Sequence record: NC_047979.1
DNA: 64,000 nucleotides
Origin: Escherichia phage Gostya9
Direction: 5' to 3' (one strand)
Part shown: in pieces, positions 9,914-31,488 of the stretch
How positions within the stretch are numbered: position 1 is the first letter of the stretch
How the letters are laid out: every line of letters begins with the position of its first letter
The notes under the pieces: model-generated
Databases searched by the model: none
What the model was told of the DNA's origin: nothing
The model's input: the letters and a program-made list of their open reading frames with translations, nothing else
Translations under genes and position numbers: made by a program

Positions 9914-9942
9914 TTGCTTTCAGCTAAAAATATATGTATAAT
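9914..9942 (+). promoter_or_regulatory. Early promoter TTGCTT-17-TATAAT
   Basis: Followed by the conserved ATAGATTTATAAATTTGAGGAGG initial transcribed region and RBS. Confidence 0.55.
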
Positions 9943-13040: not shown

Positions 13041-13069
13041 TTGCATGATGCCCAAAATCTTGATATAAT
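13041..13069 (+). promoter_or_regulatory. Early promoter TTGCAT-17-TGaTATAAT with no ORF behind it for about 600 nt
   Basis: aaaattttacTTGCATgatgcccaaaatctTGATATAATatttatattgaattgagagac; downstream 13070-13666 has no ORF of 60 aa or more on either strand. Confidence 0.5.
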
Positions 13070-13666
13070 ATTTATATTGAATTGAGAGACATTAGTAAAA
13101 ATTGATTTTGCTAATTTTTCTTAGTGAAGCTGACAAGGGATTTACGGCGAGAGGAATCGATGACCCGTAAATAGCTGCATAAGGTACGTTGCTAGAGCTT
13201 TACGAAAAAGTTTTTTCTTGTTTACAATCCGCGATACGGAACAGTTAGGCTGCCCCATTAAGGGTTGTTTTAACTGTTACGTGTTAGTTTTTAAACAACT
13301 AATTAATAGAATACTTAGCGATCTGCGTCCCATAGGAACCCTGGTAAGGCCTCGAAGCAACCTAGTATGAGGTGGTTGTGAAGTGAGATGGGAGGAGTGA
13401 AAAACTACCGAGACGTGATTCTGTAAGTTATATTGCATCTAGTATGAGCTAGTATATGAAGCATTAGGTGAGCAAATCTGGCTTAGCGGCCATCCTCAAG
13501 GATTTGTGCGGTATAATGAGGCAGCAGCGCAGCGTGAAAGTGGAAGTTGCCACCCCACTTCAGTATTTGCAATTAATTTGTTGAGAAATTGACAGTAACA
13601 GTTGTTCTATTCTTTCTGAATAGTCCTAAAGAAAACTTATTTCATTTCCAACACAGGAGTATTGTT

Positions 13667-16682: not shown

Positions 16683-16711
16683 TTGCATAGTTCAAAAAAT
16701 TTCTGTATAAT
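16683..16711 (+). promoter_or_regulatory. Strong early promoter, T5 PN25-like
   Basis: tcataaaaaatttaTTTGCATagttcaaaaaatttcTGTATAATagattcataaatttgagagaggagtt; from TTTCTGTATAAT onward this matches the T5 PN25 promoter as I recall it. Confidence 0.65.
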
Positions 16712-19976: not shown

Positions 19977-20005
19977 TTGACATTTTCGCCGCTTAGGTAT
20001 ATACT
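19977..20005 (+). promoter_or_regulatory. Promoter TTGACA-17-TATACT inside the ligase split
   Basis: TTGACAttttcgccgcttaggtaTATACT. Confidence 0.4.
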
Positions 20006-20069
20006 ATTATCATTCAGTTGAGGGATAGAAAGTTATGGCGAGGGTAAGCAAAGTTAGTTAAAATTGTAG

Positions 20070-20098
20070 TTGCTAAATGCTTAAATACTTGCTATAAT
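20070..20098 (+). promoter_or_regulatory. Early promoter TTGCTA-17-TATAAT inside the ligase split
   Basis: aaaattgtagTTGCTAaatgcttaaatacttgcTATAATatttatataaattgataaggaag. Confidence 0.5.
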
Positions 20099-20125
20099 AT
20101 TTATATAAATTGATAAGGAAGAAAT

Positions 20126-20908
20126 TTGATGAAAATCGAAATTCCAACACAATGTCCCTCTTGTGGTTCTAAGCTAGATCTTGTCAACGGACAATTATTC
20201 TGTCGTAATAAGTCCAACTGTCCAGCGCAATCAAGTAAGTTAATTGAGAACTTCTGTACAAAAATGAAGTTAAAGGGCTTTGGCCCGAAAACTATTGAGA
20301 AGCTGGAGCTGACGAAGATTTCAGAACTATTTTACCTAACCGAAGAAGATTTGGTTAGAGCCGTGGGTAGCAAGGTTGCCGCTAAGTTAATTAGCGAATT
20401 AAATACTAAAGTTCGCGGAGACATTGACTTTGGTTCAGTTCTCGGTTCTTTAGGAATCCCTCTAATTGGAGAGGTTGCAGCAAAGAAATTATCCCAAAAT
20501 TGCACTAGCTTCCACGATGTGAAGGCTGACGGCAGGGCTGGAGAAAACTATAAAGCCTGGCTAAATTCCCCACAAGGCAAGGATGTTATCGAATTACCGT
20601 GGAAATTCACAACCGGTATTAAAGGTGCTAAAGCTGAGGTCAGCATTACTGATGGTCTAGTAGCCCAACCAAATGGAATCACGGTGTGTATTACCGGATC
20701 TTTGCAAGATTTTGCAAATAGAACGGATGCAACAAACTATCTAGAAGGTCTAGGGTATACTGTTAAAAAATCAGTTACCAAAGACGTTAAATACCTCATC
20801 TGTGAGGATGAATCTAAGCGTTCTTCCTCATCTTATAAGAAAGCCGAAACGAATGGGATAGAAATCCTGTCGATTAAAGAACTATTGGAGAAAAATAATA
20901 ATGTCTAA
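20126..20908 (+). CDS. NAD-dependent DNA ligase, Zn-finger/HhH/BRCT subunit (LigA-like C-terminal half)
   Basis: Zn finger CPSCGSKLDLVNGQLFCRNKSNC, HhH-like segments, C-terminal BRCT-like region; own aaggaag RBS. Confidence 0.7.
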   Translation: MMKIEIPTQCPSCGSKLDLVNGQLFCRNKSNCPAQSSKLIENFCTKMKLKGFGPKTIEKLELTKISELFYLTEEDLVRAVGSKVAAKLISELNTKVRGDIDFGSVLGSLGIPLIGEVAAKKLSQNCTSFHDVKADGRAGENYKAWLNSPQGKDVIELPWKFTTGIKGAKAEVSITDGLVAQPNGITVCITGSLQDFANRTDATNYLEGLGYTVKKSVTKDVKYLICEDESKRSSSSYKKAETNGIEILSIKELLEKNNNV

Positions 20909-24702: not shown

Positions 24703-27700
24703 TTGAAAATTGCAGTAGTTGATAAAGCTCTAAACAACACTCGTTATGATAAACATTTCCAGCTATACGGCGAGGAAGTTGATGTATTCCATATGTGTAA
24801 CGAGAAGTTATCCGGTCGTTTGCTCAAAAAGCATATTACTATCGGGACCCCGGAAAACCCATTTGACCCGAATGATTATGATTTTGTTATACTGGTAGGT
24901 GCCGAACCTTTCCTGTACTTTGCGGGTAAGAAAGGTATTGGTGATTATACTGGTAAACGTGTAGAGTATAATGGATATGCTAACTGGATTGCTAGTATCA
25001 GCCCAGCCCAGTTACACTTTAAACCTGAAATGAAACCAGTTTTTGATGCAACAGTAGAGAGTATCCACGATATTATCAATGGTCGTGAGAAGATTGCAAA
25101 AGCTGGTGATTACCGTCCTATTACTGACCCTGATGAGGCAGAAGAATATATCAAGATGGTGTATAATATGGTTATCGGACCTGTCGCATTCGACTCCGAA
25201 ACCTCAGCACTATACTGTCGAGATGGTTATCTGCTTGGTGTTTCTATTTCTCACCAAGAGTATCAGGGTGTATATATCGATTCTGATTGTCTCACAGAGG
25301 TTGCAGTATATTATCTCCAGAAAATTCTGGATAGTGAAAACCACATTATTGTTTTTCACAACTTGAAGTTTGATATGCACTTTTATAAGTACCATCTGGG
25401 ACTTACTTTTGATAAAGCACATAAAGAACGCAGGCTCCATGATACCATGTTGCAGCACTATGTTCTAGATGAACGTCGTGGTACTCATGGCTTGAAATCT
25501 CTAGCAATGAAGTATACCGATATGGGTGACTATGACTTCGAACTAGATAAGTTCAAAGATGATTACTGCAAAGCACATAAAATCAAGAAAGAAGATTTCA
25601 CCTATGATCTGATTCCGTTTGATATTATGTGGCCATATGCATGTCTTACTCACGATTCCCAAGTTCGGATGGCTTCAGGGAATTGGAAGACTATTGGGGA
25701 ACTTGTTCGCACCAAATCTACAGAAGCTGTAGTATCATTCAACGAGTCAACTGGGCAATTTGAGAACAAACCGATTACTGGATGGTATAAAAATGAACAT
25801 AAATCCAAGCAATGGAAGAAGTTAATAGTTAAATCTCAGCAAAGAAACTCTAAGGGTACTATTAATGGGCCAGTATTTACACCAGATCATAGGGTATTAA
25901 CTCAGAATGGATACATAGAAGTCCAAGATATTATTCCAGGACAGGATAAAATCCTAACTGAAGAACTTGCTTTACCATCTGATAGTAAGCAAGTATTAAT
26001 GGCATCCCTATTTGGGGATGGTGCTCTGGTATCTAGAAATAATTGGGGCGCGGGTCTACAACTGACACAGTCAGAAGCGCATAAAGAGTATCTAGATTTT
26101 AAGGCAGCCTCTCAAGTAGAAACACCAACTCTTAGTTCCTCTACAAAAGGAGATAAAAAAGCATATACGTATAGTTTCCCCTATACCTCGGAGTATTCTG
26201 ACTTATTCTCTACCTTAGAGGTACGAGATAATACTACAAAATATAAGTTAAAAATTACTAAGAAAAATCTAGAAGGGTTAGATGAAAAAGCACTAGCTAT
26301 TTGGTATCAAGATGATGGTAACCTGCCACAAGGAAACGCACGCATTTGGTCTAGAACAGTTGCTGATTGTAAAGAAGAGCAGCAAAATTTCATAGAATGG
26401 TGTAAAAATCTAGGCATTACAGCACGCTACCATAACGATGGAGAAAATAACCAGTTCTTTGTATTAGATAATGAAGAACTATTCCCTTTGATTGCTCCAT
26501 ATATGCATAGCTCTATGGCTTACAAGGTGCCAGAAAGATTCAAGCACTTAGTAGGAACAGGAACTTGGGATTTTTCAACATCTAAGTACTACTATGCAGA
26601 AGTGTATGGGGTTGAGGATTGGGTAGTTCCAGCCTCTAGAAGAGGTTACTCTACCAGTTGGTGTATAGATGTAAAAGATAACCATAACTTTGTAACTAAA
26701 GTTGGTGTAGTTCACAACTGTAAAGATACAGATGCTACCATACGTTTGCACAACTTCTTCTTACCAAAAATTGAGAAGAATGAAAAACTTTGCAGTCTAT
26801 ATTACGATGTTCTAATGCCTGGTTGTGTATTCCTACAGCGTGTCGAAGATCGTGGTGTACCTATCTCTATTGATCGTTTGAAAGAAGCTCAGTATCAATT
26901 GACTCATAATTTGAATAAAGCCCGTGAGAAACTGTATACTTATCCAGAAGTTAAACAGCTAGAACAAGATCAGAATGAAGCATTTAACCCGAACTCTGTT
27001 AAGCAGCTGCGTGTTCTTCTGTTCGATTATGTTGGTTTGACTCCAACTGGTAAGTTAACGGATACTGGTGCAGATTCTACGGATGCAGAAGCTCTGAATG
27101 AACTGGCTACGCAGCATCCAATTGCTAAAACTCTACTAGAGATTCGTAAGCTGACTAAGCTGATCTCTACTTATGTTGAGAAGATTCTTCTGAGTATTGA
27201 TGCAGATGGTTGCATTCGTACTGGTTTCCATGAACATATGACTACTTCTGGTCGTCTGAGTTCTTCTGGTAAACTGAACCTGCAACAGCTACCTCGTGAT
27301 GAATCTATCATTAAGGGTTGTGTAGTTGCACCACCTGGATACCGTGTAATCGCATGGGACTTAACAACTGCGGAAGTTTATTATGCTGCTGTTCTATCTG
27401 GTGATAGAAATATGCAACAAGTATTTATCAACATGAGAAATGAACCCGATAAATACCCTGACTTCCACTCTAACATCGCCCACATGGTATTTAAATTGCA
27501 ATGTGAACCTCGTGATGTTAAAAAGTTATTCCCAGCTCTGCGTCAAGCAGCTAAGGCAATTACCTTTGGTATTTTGTACGGTTCTGGCCCGGCTAAAGTA
27601 GCACATTCTGTTAACGAAGCATTGCTAGAACAAGCAGCCAAAACTGGGGAACCATTTGTTGAATGTACTGTTGCAGATGCTAAAGAGTACATTGAGACTT

Positions 27701-28347
27701 ACTTTGGTCAATTCCCACAGCTTAAGCGTTGGATTGATAAGTGCCACGATCAAATCAAGAATCATGGGTTTATCTATAGTCACTTTGGTCGTAAACGTCG
27801 TCTACATAATATCCACTCTGAAGACCGTGGCGTTCAGGGTGAAGAAATTCGTTCTGGGTTTAACGCAATCATTCAGTCTGCTTCTTCTGATAGTCTCCTT
27901 TTAGGTGCTGTAGATGCAGATAATGAGATCATTTCTCTTGGCCTAGAACAAGAGATGAAGATTGTTATGCTGGTTCATGACTCCGTAGTTGCTATTGTTC
28001 GTGAAGACTTGATTGATCAATACAATGAAATTCTGATTCGTAATATTCAGAAAGACCGTGGTATCAGTATTCCTGGCTGTCCGATTGGTATTGATTCAGA
28101 TTCTGAAGCTGGAGGTTCTCGTGACTATTCTTGTGGTAAGATGAAGAAACAGCACCCATCAATCGCTTGTATTGATGATGACGAATATACTCGTTACGTT
28201 AAAGAAATGCTTCTTGATTCTGAATTCGAGTATAAGAAATTAGCTGCAATGGATAAAGAGCATCCAGATCATAGCAAATACAAGGATGATAAGTTTATTG
28301 CTGTATGTAAGGATCTGGATAACGTGAAAAGGGTTCTCGGTGCTTAA
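24703..28347 (+). CDS. Family A DNA polymerase with 3'-5' exonuclease domain, interrupted in-frame by an intein
   Basis: Exo I VAFDSETSALY; pol motif B RQAAKAITFGILYGSG; motif C LVHDSVV. 1214 aa in total; 855 aa once the 359-aa intein is removed. TTG start with aagaggaga RBS. Confidence 0.9.
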   Translation: MKIAVVDKALNNTRYDKHFQLYGEEVDVFHMCNEKLSGRLLKKHITIGTPENPFDPNDYDFVILVGAEPFLYFAGKKGIGDYTGKRVEYNGYANWIASISPAQLHFKPEMKPVFDATVESIHDIINGREKIAKAGDYRPITDPDEAEEYIKMVYNMVIGPVAFDSETSALYCRDGYLLGVSISHQEYQGVYIDSDCLTEVAVYYLQKILDSENHIIVFHNLKFDMHFYKYHLGLTFDKAHKERRLHDTMLQHYVLDERRGTHGLKSLAMKYTDMGDYDFELDKFKDDYCKAHKIKKEDFTYDLIPFDIMWPYACLTHDSQVRMASGNWKTIGELVRTKSTEAVVSFNESTGQFENKPITGWYKNEHKSKQWKKLIVKSQQRNSKGTINGPVFTPDHRVLTQNGYIEVQDIIPGQDKILTEELALPSDSKQVLMASLFGDGALVSRNNWGAGLQLTQSEAHKEYLDFKAASQVETPTLSSSTKGDKKAYTYSFPYTSEYSDLFSTLEVRDNTTKYKLKITKKNLEGLDEKALAIWYQDDGNLPQGNARIWSRTVADCKEEQQNFIEWCKNLGITARYHNDGENNQFFVLDNEELFPLIAPYMHSSMAYKVPERFKHLVGTGTWDFSTSKYYYAEVYGVEDWVVPASRRGYSTSWCIDVKDNHNFVTKVGVVHNCKDTDATIRLHNFFLPKIEKNEKLCSLYYDVLMPGCVFLQRVEDRGVPISIDRLKEAQYQLTHNLNKAREKLYTYPEVKQLEQDQNEAFNPNSVKQLRVLLFDYVGLTPTGKLTDTGADSTDAEALNELATQHPIAKTLLEIRKLTKLISTYVEKILLSIDADGCIRTGFHEHMTTSGRLSSSGKLNLQQLPRDESIIKGCVVAPPGYRVIAWDLTTAEVYYAAVLSGDRNMQQVFINMRNEPDKYPDFHSNIAHMVFKLQCEPRDVKKLFPALRQAAKAITFGILYGSGPAKVAHSVNEALLEQAAKTGEPFVECTVADAKEYIETYFGQFPQLKRWIDKCHDQIKNHGFIYSHFGRKRRLHNIHSEDRGVQGEEIRSGFNAIIQSASSDSLLLGAVDADNEIISLGLEQEMKIVMLVHDSVVAIVREDLIDQYNEILIRNIQKDRGISIPGCPIGIDSDSEAGGSRDYSCGKMKKQHPSIACIDDDEYTRYVKEMLLDSEFEYKKLAAMDKEHPDHSKYKDDKFIAVCKDLDNVKRVLGA
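25642..26718 (+). mobile_element. Intein with LAGLIDADG homing endonuclease inside the DNA polymerase
   Basis: Block A CLTHDSQVRMASG begins at Cys; block B FTPDHRVL; two LAGLIDADG motifs (LMASLFGDGAL, LAIWYQDDGNL); blocks F/G VKDNHNFVTKVGVVHN followed by +1 Cys (CKDTDA). Confidence 0.85.
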
Positions 28348-28837
28348 TTTCAAATTGCCCGTCTATGCGTTACGGGCGTTTGTATCAATTGAGCAAGAAG
28401 GTGATTATTCCGTAATTACAACAAGATATAATAAATATGTGCTAGATAACAGGAAGTTGCCTGGCACGTTTTCTCAACGTAGGCTTATTCTATTTGAGAA
28501 ACGGAAAGAATTACCATATAAGCTCTATCCTATTAGAGGTAGAATATCAATGTTGTCTCAATTAGTTGGGTCAAAGCGTAACCAATTTATAGATTCTGAT
28601 GGAAATCTTATTAATTGGAAGAAAACAACGTTCTACGATGTTGTCACCTCTAAAGTTTTGCATTCAGCTAGAATTTACAATGGAAAATACCAATGCTACG
28701 TGGCTAAAGTCCCTTATCCATTTGTATTATCCTATGTTCCAGCTTATATAAGCTATATTCTGGTAAATAATAGCCCTGTTATTTATCAAGTCCATCAAGA
28801 GGAGCCTGAAATTCCTAGACTTAGAATAAAATTATGA
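28340..28837 (+). CDS. Hypothetical protein (about 165 aa), AT-rich
   Basis: GTG start with aaaaggg RBS overlapping the polymerase stop; composition is more AT-rich than the flanking replication genes. Confidence 0.4.
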   Translation: MLNFKLPVYALRAFVSIEQEGDYSVITTRYNKYVLDNRKLPGTFSQRRLILFEKRKELPYKLYPIRGRISMLSQLVGSKRNQFIDSDGNLINWKKTTFYDVVTSKVLHSARIYNGKYQCYVAKVPYPFVLSYVPAYISYILVNNSPVIYQVHQEEPEIPRLRIKL

Positions 28838-30186
28838 AGGTTGTTATATCTAATAAAGCCTATTTCAAGCCCGATGATGAACTTTGGGATTATTGTAGTA
28901 AGCAAACCACTTACCACATAGAGACAATGACTAGTAAATACCCTATTATGTATAAGAATAGTGGTGTTGTTGCCAAAGAGATTAAGTGGATTCCTATTAC
29001 GCGTCTGGATTTACTAGATGCTAAAGGAATAAAATACGAATTAGTTGATAAACGCACGTTAGCTCCGGTAGATATACCAAAACCGTCGTTTAAACTGCGT
29101 GAAGAAGATCAGCTTCCAATATACGAAGAGTGCGATGATACCTGCATTATTAATGGTAAGCCTGGATTTGGTAAAACTATCCTAGCACTTGCACTTGCGT
29201 ATAAATTTGGCCAGAAAACTTTGGTAATCTGTACGAATACATCCATTCGTGAAATGTGGGCGGCGGAAGTTCGTAAATGGTTTGGGTTTGAACCGGGCAT
29301 CATAGGTTCTGGGAAATACAATATCGATCCACCAATTGTAGTCAGTAATATTCAAACAGTGAATAAGCATGCGAATAATCTTTCTAAAGTATTCGGTACT
29401 GTTATAGTTGATGAAGTTCACCATTGTGTAGCTACAACTTTCACTAACTTCCTAGAAATATCATGTGCTCGCTATAAAATTGGACTATCCGGCACACTAA
29501 AACGTAAGGATGGCTTGCAAGTTATGTTCAAAGATTTCTTTGGATATAAAATCTTTAGTCCTCCAGTTAATAATACTGTTGCTCCTACAATCCACAGGTA
29601 CTCCGTACCAGTTGAATTGTCTGGAAACCAAAACGTACCGTGGGCATTACGTGCTAACGATGTGTATAACCATCCTGAATATCGAGGGGCTATTATAAAC
29701 CTAGCACATTTATATGTGAATATGGGGCATAAAGTACTCATTGTAAGTGATAGAACAGAGTTAATCCAAACAGTACTAGAAGCTCTTACGCAGCGGGGTG
29801 TCACAACCTATGAAATTATAGGGGCAACCCACTTAGATGACCGATTAAAAATTCAGGAAGATATAGCAAAAGGTGGGCCTTGTGTACTTGCAGCAGCTCA
29901 AAGTATCTTCTCTGAAGGTATTTCCCTTAATGAGCTATCTTGTTTAATAATGGGAAGCCTCATTAATAATGAATCTCTCATTGAACAGCTTGCAGGCCGT
30001 GTTCAACGTATTGTCGATGGTAAACTCGACCCTATTGTTGTAGATCTAATTATGAAAGGTGGCACTGGACTAAGACAGGCTTCTGGACGTATGGCAGTAT
30101 ACCGTAACAATGGGTGGAAAACTATTACTATGACTCCTGAGAAAGCAGTTCAATTAGCCAAAATTGCATTTGGCAACAGCTCATAA
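28834..30186 (+). CDS. DEAH-box DNA helicase (superfamily 2)
   Basis: Walker A NGKPGFGKTILA; DEAH box VIVDEVHH; helicase C-terminal domain. Confidence 0.8.
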   Translation: MKVVISNKAYFKPDDELWDYCSKQTTYHIETMTSKYPIMYKNSGVVAKEIKWIPITRLDLLDAKGIKYELVDKRTLAPVDIPKPSFKLREEDQLPIYEECDDTCIINGKPGFGKTILALALAYKFGQKTLVICTNTSIREMWAAEVRKWFGFEPGIIGSGKYNIDPPIVVSNIQTVNKHANNLSKVFGTVIVDEVHHCVATTFTNFLEISCARYKIGLSGTLKRKDGLQVMFKDFFGYKIFSPPVNNTVAPTIHRYSVPVELSGNQNVPWALRANDVYNHPEYRGAIINLAHLYVNMGHKVLIVSDRTELIQTVLEALTQRGVTTYEIIGATHLDDRLKIQEDIAKGGPCVLAAAQSIFSEGISLNELSCLIMGSLINNESLIEQLAGRVQRIVDGKLDPIVVDLIMKGGTGLRQASGRMAVYRNNGWKTITMTPEKAVQLAKIAFGNSS

Positions 30187-30198
30187 ATGATGTATAAT
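30170..30198 (+). promoter_or_regulatory. Early promoter TTGGCA-17-TGTATAAT (first copy of a tandem pair)
   Basis: tgTATAATatatacataaatttgagagagaaag, followed by a hairpin (ttcgga...tccgaa). Confidence 0.45.
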
Positions 30199-30269
30199 AT
30201 ATACATAAATTTGAGAGAGAAAGTTTCGGATTGATAAGAAAGTCCGAAGCAGAAAAATAAAAATTTTAG

Positions 30270-30299
30270 TTGCTAAATTCTCTTGAAATCTAGTATAAT
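30270..30299 (+). promoter_or_regulatory. Early promoter TTGCTA-18-TATAAT (second copy)
   Basis: aaaattttagTTGCTAaattctcttgaaatctagTATAATatatacataaattcgaggag. Confidence 0.5.
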
Positions 30300-30406
30300 A
30301 TATACATAAATTCGAGGAGAAAACAAAAATTAAATTCTTCGATTATGAAAGGCTATATTTACTAGCTAGAGGAAATTCCGACCTAATTATTAAGCTATTC
30401 AAAAGA

Positions 30407-30691
30407 ATGCTTACAGAGCCTGATGCTCACCAATTATTGGTCGGTTCCTCATTCATTTTGAATGAATCAACAATAGTTGATAATCCAAATAAATTGTCTA
30501 ATAGACAACTGGCAGAATATCTAGGAATTTTAAGTCTACGAAATTATGCCGAATACAAGTTTACAAACGATCCTAGTTTGGACATACAATATGTTCCAGT
30601 ATGGATACCACGTTTAGTAATCGACACTAACCCACTAATCGCAATTAACAAATCGAAATTAATCTTTAAAGAGGAAATAAAATATGGCTAA
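30407..30691 (+). CDS. Hypothetical protein (94 aa)
   Basis: ORF downstream of the tandem promoters; no RBS or motif recognised. Confidence 0.35.
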   Translation: MLTEPDAHQLLVGSSFILNESTIVDNPNKLSNRQLAEYLGILSLRNYAEYKFTNDPSLDIQYVPVWIPRLVIDTNPLIAINKSKLIFKEEIKYG

Positions 30692-31457
30692 GTCTTGGGG
30701 CGAAACTACTGGCGGTTCTAACGATAAAATCGAATTCCTGAAGTTCAATAACGGTATCACTCGTGTTCGTATCGTTTCTGGTGTTCTTCCACGTTATGTT
30801 TATTGGCTGACTAATAAAGAAGGTGGCGTAGCTCCTTTCGAATGTCTCCGTTTTAACCGTGACAAAGAGAGCTTTGTTCGTGGTAAAGCTGATCCGGTTC
30901 ATGAGATGGGCTTCTTTGAGAAAGAGCTGGATAAAGATGGTAATCGCGTTCCACTGAAACCGAAGAAAAACTATATCGCTTTTGTTATCGACCGTTCTGA
31001 TAACAAACTGAAAGTAATGGAAGTCAAAGCTACTATTCTGAAAGGCATCCAGTCTATCATGAAACAGTTGAATCTGGCAACTCCGTTTGATATTGATATT
31101 TCTATCGAGAAAAAAGGCAAAGGTTTCGATACTGAGTATGATGTACAGCAGATTGCTGCTATGCAGTTCCAGATTAAGCTACAAGATCCTAACAGTGCAG
31201 AATCTAAGCAATATGCTGCAGATGTAGATCTGATTGGTGAAGCTATGTGTGATGAAGATGGCGACATCATTAAGTTCGAGAAAGTTCCTTCTCTGGAACA
31301 AACCTATCCGGTTCCTACCTATGAAGAGCAGAAAGAAGCAATTCAAGCCTTCATGGAAGGTCGTGAGAATAAAGATGATGATGCCAAGTCTGGTAATAGC
31401 AATGCTGGTTCCCAGAAAGGTATTGACCAAGAAGCTGCAAGCGATCTGGACGACTAA
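30684..31457 (+). CDS. Highly expressed early protein with acidic C-terminal tail, possible ssDNA-binding protein
   Basis: gaggaaataaaatATG RBS; optimal-codon bias; C-terminus ...SGNSNAGSQKGIDQEAASDLDD is acidic like SSB tails; followed by a terminator. Confidence 0.4.
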   Translation: MAKSWGETTGGSNDKIEFLKFNNGITRVRIVSGVLPRYVYWLTNKEGGVAPFECLRFNRDKESFVRGKADPVHEMGFFEKELDKDGNRVPLKPKKNYIAFVIDRSDNKLKVMEVKATILKGIQSIMKQLNLATPFDIDISIEKKGKGFDTEYDVQQIAAMQFQIKLQDPNSAESKQYAADVDLIGEAMCDEDGDIIKFEKVPSLEQTYPVPTYEEQKEAIQAFMEGRENKDDDAKSGNSNAGSQKGIDQEAASDLDD

Positions 31458-31463
31458 TAAATA

Positions 31464-31488
31464 GAGGGGCTTCGGCCCCTTTCTTTTT
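31464..31488 (+). terminator. Rho-independent terminator
   Basis: ggggc-ttcg-gcccc followed by tttcttttt. Confidence 0.65.

Follow-up and report, generated by a model that had tools for sequence, protein, structure and literature searches.

The analysed window is a stretch of 64,000 nucleotides of Escherichia phage Gostya9 (NC_047979.1), and all coordinates are counted from its first base. The 901 bases around the locus described here match 440 phage records, all of them T5-like phages of Escherichia and Salmonella (Demerecviridae), more than 200 at an identity of at least 95%, with DaisyDussoix and DT57C as the best matches at about 99%; judged from these matches, the window belongs to a T5-like phage of the genus Tequintavirus. 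Two promoter units, P31A and P31B, are placed between the D10 helicase gene and the genes of a T5.125 homologue and of the single-strand DNA-binding protein (SSB) D11 (Table 1). The -35 hexamer of P31A sits within the last codons of the helicase gene, and T5.125 and D11 share 8 nt where the one ends and the other starts. The transcription unit of the two promoters probably ends at the first intrinsic terminator behind them. Regarding T5.125, Pfam gave no match and the PDB no sequence relative, and the sole match was PHROG 4258, a family of unknown function. Elsewhere in the window, the family-A DNA polymerase ORF (24703-28347) encodes 1214 aa, compared to 855 aa in T5; a Pfam search places a LAGLIDADG endonuclease domain at aa 430-578, between the exonuclease and polymerase domains, together with a weak intein-splicing match at aa 323-672, which suggests that this ORF carries an intein-type insertion.

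Table 1. Features of the P31A/P31B locus in the window
Feature	Position	Strand	Basis
D10 ATP-dependent helicase gene	28834..30186	+	ORF list; orthologues annotated D10 helicase in T5, BF23 and AKFV33
P31A core: -35 TTGGCA 30170-30175, 17-bp spacer, -10 TATAAT 30193-30198	30170..30198	+	Consensus scan, 11/12
Repeat copy 1: -10, discriminator and initial transcribed region with purine-rich pseudo-RBS GAGAGAGAAAG	30185..30222	+	
RNA hairpin GUUUCGGAUU-GAUAAGAA-AGUCCGAAGC, 10 bp including 2 G.U, 8-nt loop	30223..30250	+	Folding
A/T-rich tract GAAGCAGAAAAATAAAAATTTTAG at the UP-element position of P31B, about -60 to -37	30246..30269	+	Read from sequence
P31B core: -35 TTGCTA 30270-30275, 18-bp spacer, -10 TATAAT 30294-30299	30270..30299	+	Consensus scan, 10/12
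Repeat copy 2: -10, discriminator and initial transcribed region with Shine-Dalgarno GAGGAG 30314-30319	30286..30323	+	
T5.125 homologue, 120 aa, PHROG 4258, function unknown	30329..30691	+	ATT start; usual annotation ATG 30407
D11 single-strand DNA-binding protein (SSB) gene	30684..31457	+	ORF list; orthologue annotation
First downstream intrinsic terminator	31463..31484	+	Terminator scan; annotated terminator in T5

No + strand sequence in the region matches sigma-70 better than these two promoters, and the two near-identical units about 100 bp apart past the helicase gene, which the preliminary description had reported, are present with near-consensus hexamers and a spacing of 101 bp. The units have in common an identical 21-nt core, at 30192 and 30293, within which the 20-mer GTATAATATATACATAAATT is exact at 30192-30211 and 30293-30312, and a pairwise repeat search returned a direct repeat of 31 nt with 87% identity at the same spacing. 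The predicted start of P31A is A 30205, which we take to be the first transcribed base by analogy with T5 PN25, and that of P31B would be A 30306. The A/T-rich tract in front of P31B, which is 89% conserved in Klebsiella Sugarlandvirus phages, would by its position act as the UP element of this promoter.

In the T5 reference (NC_005859), the orthologous positions carry the annotations 'promoter P31A' (75467-75541) and 'promoter P31B' (75568-75642), in an intergenic sequence that is only a few substitutions apart from that of the window, and the records of AKFV33 and BF23 annotate the second copy (P31B) as a promoter. By this correspondence in sequence and position, the repeated units are the T5 early promoters P31A and P31B, already known from the reference annotation, and the suggestion of a duplicated regulatory module proved to be right, with a tandem arrangement conserved across the family. 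Activity of both promoters in vivo is presumed from their sequence and from a database annotation of unstated evidence; the searchable literature, including Klimuk 2020, the BF23 genome, the D2 helicase work and the CRISPRi-ART preprint, yielded no transcript-level data for the P31A/P31B locus.

When GTATAATATATACATAAATT is searched with up to three mismatches, four more sites are found on the + strand, at 9936, 16705, 18917 and 20092, giving a family of six + strand promoter sites in the window against a chance expectation of 0.01, with the discriminator and initial transcribed region TATAATAnnTnnATAAATT...GAGAG in common. The member at 16706 has the sequence of the classic T5 promoter PN25, and in all four members other than P31A and P31B a Shine-Dalgarno sequence is present and an ATG follows the first base of the -10 by 35-37 nt. 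The P31 units are built in the same way as the T5 PN25 class, i.e., an A/T-rich upstream tract, TTGnnn, a 17-18 bp spacer, TATAAT and ATAAATTTGAGAG with its ribosome-binding site (RBS), whereas no gene lies directly behind P31A. There, ATT 30230 and TTG 30231 stand at the usual start-codon distance from the -10 and open frames of only 9 or 18 codons with non-ATG starts, so that the earlier statement of 'no start codon' after the first unit is correct for ATG and GTG and not for these weaker codons. A mini-ORF from ATT 30230 was considered and set aside: it runs over 22 codons in T5 and in Epseptimavirus, its end falls in the P31B -10 and it is inseparable from the constraint on the promoter, while the window has a TGA at codon 19 and Sugarlandvirus lacks the start codon.

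A second tandem pair named in T5 precedes ligB, P-K28b and P-K28a with a spacing of 93 bp, and because both this pair and P31A/P31B are named, tandem early promoters are a known design feature of T5. As in the P31 pair, a single transcription unit is served by two consecutive sigma-70 promoters, and P-K28b, like P31A, is followed by an RBS-like sequence and then a mini-ORF only; the P31 copies are near-identical from -17 to +18, whereas P-K28b and P-K28a are not alike. In the window this pair lies at about 19978-20098, and the stretch of about 19978-20130 has a layout that parallels P31A/P31B without the hairpin: behind the upstream promoter (TTGACA-17-TATACT) come GAGGGA and a mini-ORF of 8 codons opening with ATG, and the UP element of the downstream promoter comes next. 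The P1-P2 promoters of bacterial rrn operons are likewise tandem sigma-70 promoters feeding one unit and resemble the P31 pair in this respect. We know of no differential regulation of P31A compared to P31B.

The start of T5.125 bears on how P31B is read. The T5 reference and most other inspected Tequintavirus records call a 94-aa protein from ATG 30407, and in the preliminary description, too, an ORF followed only about 100 nt past the second unit. The frame is open from 30311, after an upstream stop at 30308, and no other start codon lies between this stop and ATT 30329, which is 9 nt past the GAGGAG of repeat copy 2 and 35 nt past the start of the P31B -10, in the position where other promoter cassettes place their ATG. 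Epseptimavirus phages (e.g., Seafire) have an ATG at the matching codon and the same N-terminus, MKFFDYER, the start codon being ATT in 23 of 23 Tequintavirus and ATG in 6 of 6 Epseptimavirus sequences. Eight homologues align without gaps from residue 1, positions 1-120 of the PHROG 4258 profile match residues 1-120, and tblastn homology begins at residues 4-10 of the open frame in Klebsiella phages (66% identity) and Vibrio phages (44-49%), whose annotated homologues have 117-121 aa. Among 29 sequences of Tequintavirus and Epseptimavirus, the 25 codons ahead of the annotated ATG have 7/2/14 variable sites at the three codon positions, compared to 10/3/31 behind it, and in the ATT group, the ratio of synonymous to non-synonymous variable codons is 5:2 upstream and 17:7 downstream.

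Taken together, the frame, homologue, profile and codon-position evidence places the start of T5.125, a protein of 120 aa, at AUU 30329, and by the same comparison the T5 reference, like most of the other Tequintavirus records inspected, calls the start of this gene wrongly. Consequently, P31B is an ordinary promoter and ribosome-binding-site cassette, and the untranslated leader of 100 nt that it was supposed to have arises from wrongly called start codons. In Sugarlandvirus (KPN4, L005 685-700; also L040/L041), just 4 nt separate the TATAAT of the last promoter from the start codon ATG of the T5.125 homologue, so that the mRNA would be leaderless in these phages; the start of T5.125 would thus differ by genus, as a Shine-Dalgarno sequence with ATG, a Shine-Dalgarno sequence with AUU, or a leaderless ATG.

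The T5.125 homologue is always directly upstream of the SSB gene, and multi-promoter arrays occur between it and the helicase gene in most Demerecviridae lineages sampled. Two promoters are found in this interval in Tequintavirus, Epseptimavirus, KKP_3711, 70E34-1b, JSF12, L043/44 and L057, three in Sugarlandvirus (KPN4), Pogseptimavirus (PG07) and L045/46, and Jesfedecavirus is also among the lineages with two or three; across these lineages, the promoters are spaced by 72-117 bp, mostly 92-105. In L055, a distant relative of metagenomic origin (41% protein identity), a separate duplication of 66 nt is present, with 94% identity and 105-bp spacing, in which the promoter sequence is a different one (TTGACA-17-TATAGT), and this duplication is, by its sequence, independent. 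A single promoter is present in L042, so the tandem arrangement is dispensable. Absence of the duplication from relatives had been proposed as the mark of a recent neutral event; comparison of the copies in related phages instead shows it to be old and widespread.

Several other features were seen in the same interval. In Cetovirus and in L047/48, a gene driven by the first promoter lies between the two promoters where the other genera have none: in the Vibrio phage Ceto it is gp52 (134 aa, L008 230-634), and in L047 and L048, a Vibrio-phage lineage, it lies upstream of 1201. An HNH homing-endonuclease gene is present between the helicase gene and P31A in some Epseptimavirus and related phages (about 870-1040 in L033 and L038), and by such comparison this intergenic site is a hotspot of mobile-gene insertion. 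The first array promoters of KPN4 (L005 493) and KKP_3711 (L006 593) resemble the promoters at 13064-13110 and 17732 of the window through their transcribed regions, a hint that promoter cassettes may move between sites in Demerecviridae genomes.

With such traffic at the site, the P31A unit could be a relic cassette left after gene loss, or a neutral duplication, without a selected role of its own and with the hairpin as debris. The RBS-like sequence and the weak ATT and TTG codons at the ATG position of a T5 cassette, leading into very short frames only, would be expected of such a relic, as would the real gene between the promoters in Cetovirus and L047/48, the gain and loss of homing-endonuclease genes beside P31A and the single promoter with which L042 manages. 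Yet recombination should readily remove a 21-nt perfect repeat at 101 bp, and two genera have nonetheless kept it in hundreds of genomes; arrays of several promoters turn up with unrelated sequences in many genera, one of them a recent and independent duplication; and the P31A segment is part of the longest perfectly identical run in the locus, so that this explanation is considered unlikely. The persistence of a recombination-prone repeat, together with the independent re-invention of such arrays, argues that promoter multiplicity itself is under selection at this site.

This run of 75 nt, which reaches from the P31A -10 across the hairpin as far as the A-tract, is 100% identical between Tequintavirus and Epseptimavirus, which differ by 12% (88% identity) over the 2.76-kb locus; it is tied in length with the region of the D11 translation start. 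Most of it is covered by promoter parts, namely -10, discriminator, the 20 bases transcribed first and the P31B UP element, and for the remaining 21 nt or so (5' arm and loop), the chance of no change is about 0.07 by our own estimate (0.88^21). The hairpin and this identical block give a hint of something beyond a plain promoter.

The hairpin reported after the first unit was recovered as TTCGGA-N12-TCCGAA at 30225-30248, occurring once in the window, and the A-rich stretch behind it is also there. The RNA stem of 10 bp lies 19-46 nt downstream of the predicted P31A start and folds with -14.0 kcal/mol (z = -7 against shuffles), compared to -5.3 kcal/mol for the - strand, and this strand-specific stability arises because two of the pairs are G.U, which points to a role at the RNA level rather than as a DNA palindrome. 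The hairpin does not differ between Tequintavirus and Epseptimavirus; in Sugarlandvirus the stem (CUUCGGA/UCCGAAG) is retained around a loop of 3 nt, in an otherwise unalignable leader. Outside these three genera, a family-wide hairpin was rejected: no significant hairpin was found in seven of the eight inter-promoter intervals tested in other genera, and that of JSF12 is marginal (-8.8 kcal/mol, z = -1.6). Variants of the stem seen in single genomes disrupt it in three cases (L015, L020, L027) and stay G.U-compatible in two (L017, L035), and no compensatory pairs were found across relatives.

It had been proposed from this arrangement that P31A makes a non-coding RNA of 40-70 nt ending at or after the hairpin, or that the hairpin is a transcriptional attenuator. 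A stable stem so close behind the predicted start, its specificity for + strand RNA, the lack of a canonical ATG or GTG behind P31A and the perfect conservation of the leader between two genera would all suit such a product. However, the stem is followed by CAGAAAAAUAAAAA and not by a U-tract, and the terminator scan of 30187-31462 found no intrinsic terminator, i.e., none before 31463; an Rfam 15 scan of 30000-30700 at a permissive threshold returned noise only, the best score being SprD on the - strand with 20 bits against a 100-bit threshold. Neither a leader peptide nor mutually exclusive terminator and antiterminator structures were found in the P31A leader, most genera with tandem promoters lack a significant hairpin, and variants that break pairs of the stem are about as common as variants that keep them. 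Thus neither a separate small RNA nor an attenuator is supported, and this proposal is rated as very improbable.

Regarding other structures of the leader, the predicted long-range pairings differ between Tequintavirus and Epseptimavirus. An anti-Shine-Dalgarno pairing that would silence T5.125, of UCUCUCGAA with GAGAGA or GAGGAGA, was considered in Tequintavirus and dropped, as it is not kept in Epseptimavirus despite the many substitutions there. The hairpin also recalls the T4-type PeSL cassettes, in which a stem-loop likewise stands directly upstream of an early promoter at a site with gene gain and loss; those are dispersed repeats, whereas a single copy of the hairpin and of its 23-nt flank is present in the 64 kb, and the identity with such a mobile cassette was rejected because the window holds no dispersed family of them. 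A 63-nt hairpin-promoter block also matched Klebsiella phage records of 74 kb and 289 kb, which might have meant a mobile cassette in unrelated phages; in both records the matched locus has the Sugarlandvirus gene layout, and this reading was rejected. One of the two is classified as Sugarlandvirus; the other is listed in Straboviridae and seems to be a mixed assembly.

The leader might also be thought of as a cis element. The primary origin of T7, with demonstrated origin function, consists of the tandem promoters phi1.1A and phi1.1B and an AT-rich unwinding region; oriF and oriG of T4 are transcription-primed origins and are cited as a parallel to the P31A leader; and in the T4 gene 32 mRNA, autoregulation by the SSB works through a structured site of nucleation and, behind it, a leader that is A/U-rich and unstructured. 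Similarly, the P31 tandem promoters adjoin replication genes and are followed by AT-rich DNA, an anatomy compatible with that of T7, with the difference that T7 promoters are served by the phage RNA polymerase while P31A and P31B are host sigma-70 promoters. With strong tandem promoters inside the replication gene cluster and directly before the SSB gene, an A/U-rich tract that runs from the hairpin to the ribosome-binding site, and very high conservation, the leader could conceivably be a functional RNA or DNA element, either an origin of the T7 phi1.1A/B type that forms an R-loop or a primer, or a gp32-like operator by which D11 would regulate its own T5.125-D11 operon, and this is held to be a long shot by analogy. 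If true, it would explain the most perfectly conserved stretch of the locus between the two genera. As to T5 itself, electron microscopy showed multiple internal origins (cited in PMC3632103), with none mapped at the sequence level. As a rival account of the locus, whether as a transcription-primed origin or as an operator for translational autoregulation of the SSB, a cis element is the least probable of those weighed, the support being purely analogical, the hairpin absent in most genera, D11 having a ribosome-binding site of its own, 360 nt past the leader, and the other T5 tandem pair, P-K28b/a before ligB, lacking any link to an SSB.

The reading that we prefer, with a probability of roughly 0.72, is that P31A and P31B are tandem sigma-70 early promoters that boost the SSB operon, the P31A transcripts having a structured leader. 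The 101 bp between them should exceed the footprint of one polymerase and would leave room for each to hold its own host RNA polymerase, presumably with independent loading. Both would transcribe rightward through the T5.125 homologue and then D11 up to the terminator at 31463-31484, and since nothing terminates them before 31463, the P31A transcripts would read through P31B into the operon, with an extra leader of about 124 nt made up of the pseudo-RBS, the + strand hairpin and the P31B promoter sequence. Serial promoters may in this way raise the supply of mRNA for the SSB, which is needed stoichiometrically in replication, or make it more robust, a dosage rationale that would fit an operon in demand of abundant mRNA. 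T5.125 has a strong Shine-Dalgarno sequence, but its weak AUU start probably keeps its translation low, and D11 would be translated from its own strong ribosome-binding site. As for the hairpin, it could be guessed that it stabilises + strand transcripts or marks their processing, whether these come from P31A or from read-through of the pol-D10 operon.

P31A and P31B are then a tandem promoter of the textbook T5 type, with no case as a new small RNA, and the value of the analysis is mostly corrective. The new points are the start of T5.125 at a rare codon, AUU, in Tequintavirus, the recurrence of promoter arrays across the family and a + strand hairpin in three genera. Standing beside very strong promoters, the AUU start of T5.125 would be a natural case of down-tuning at the level of the start codon.
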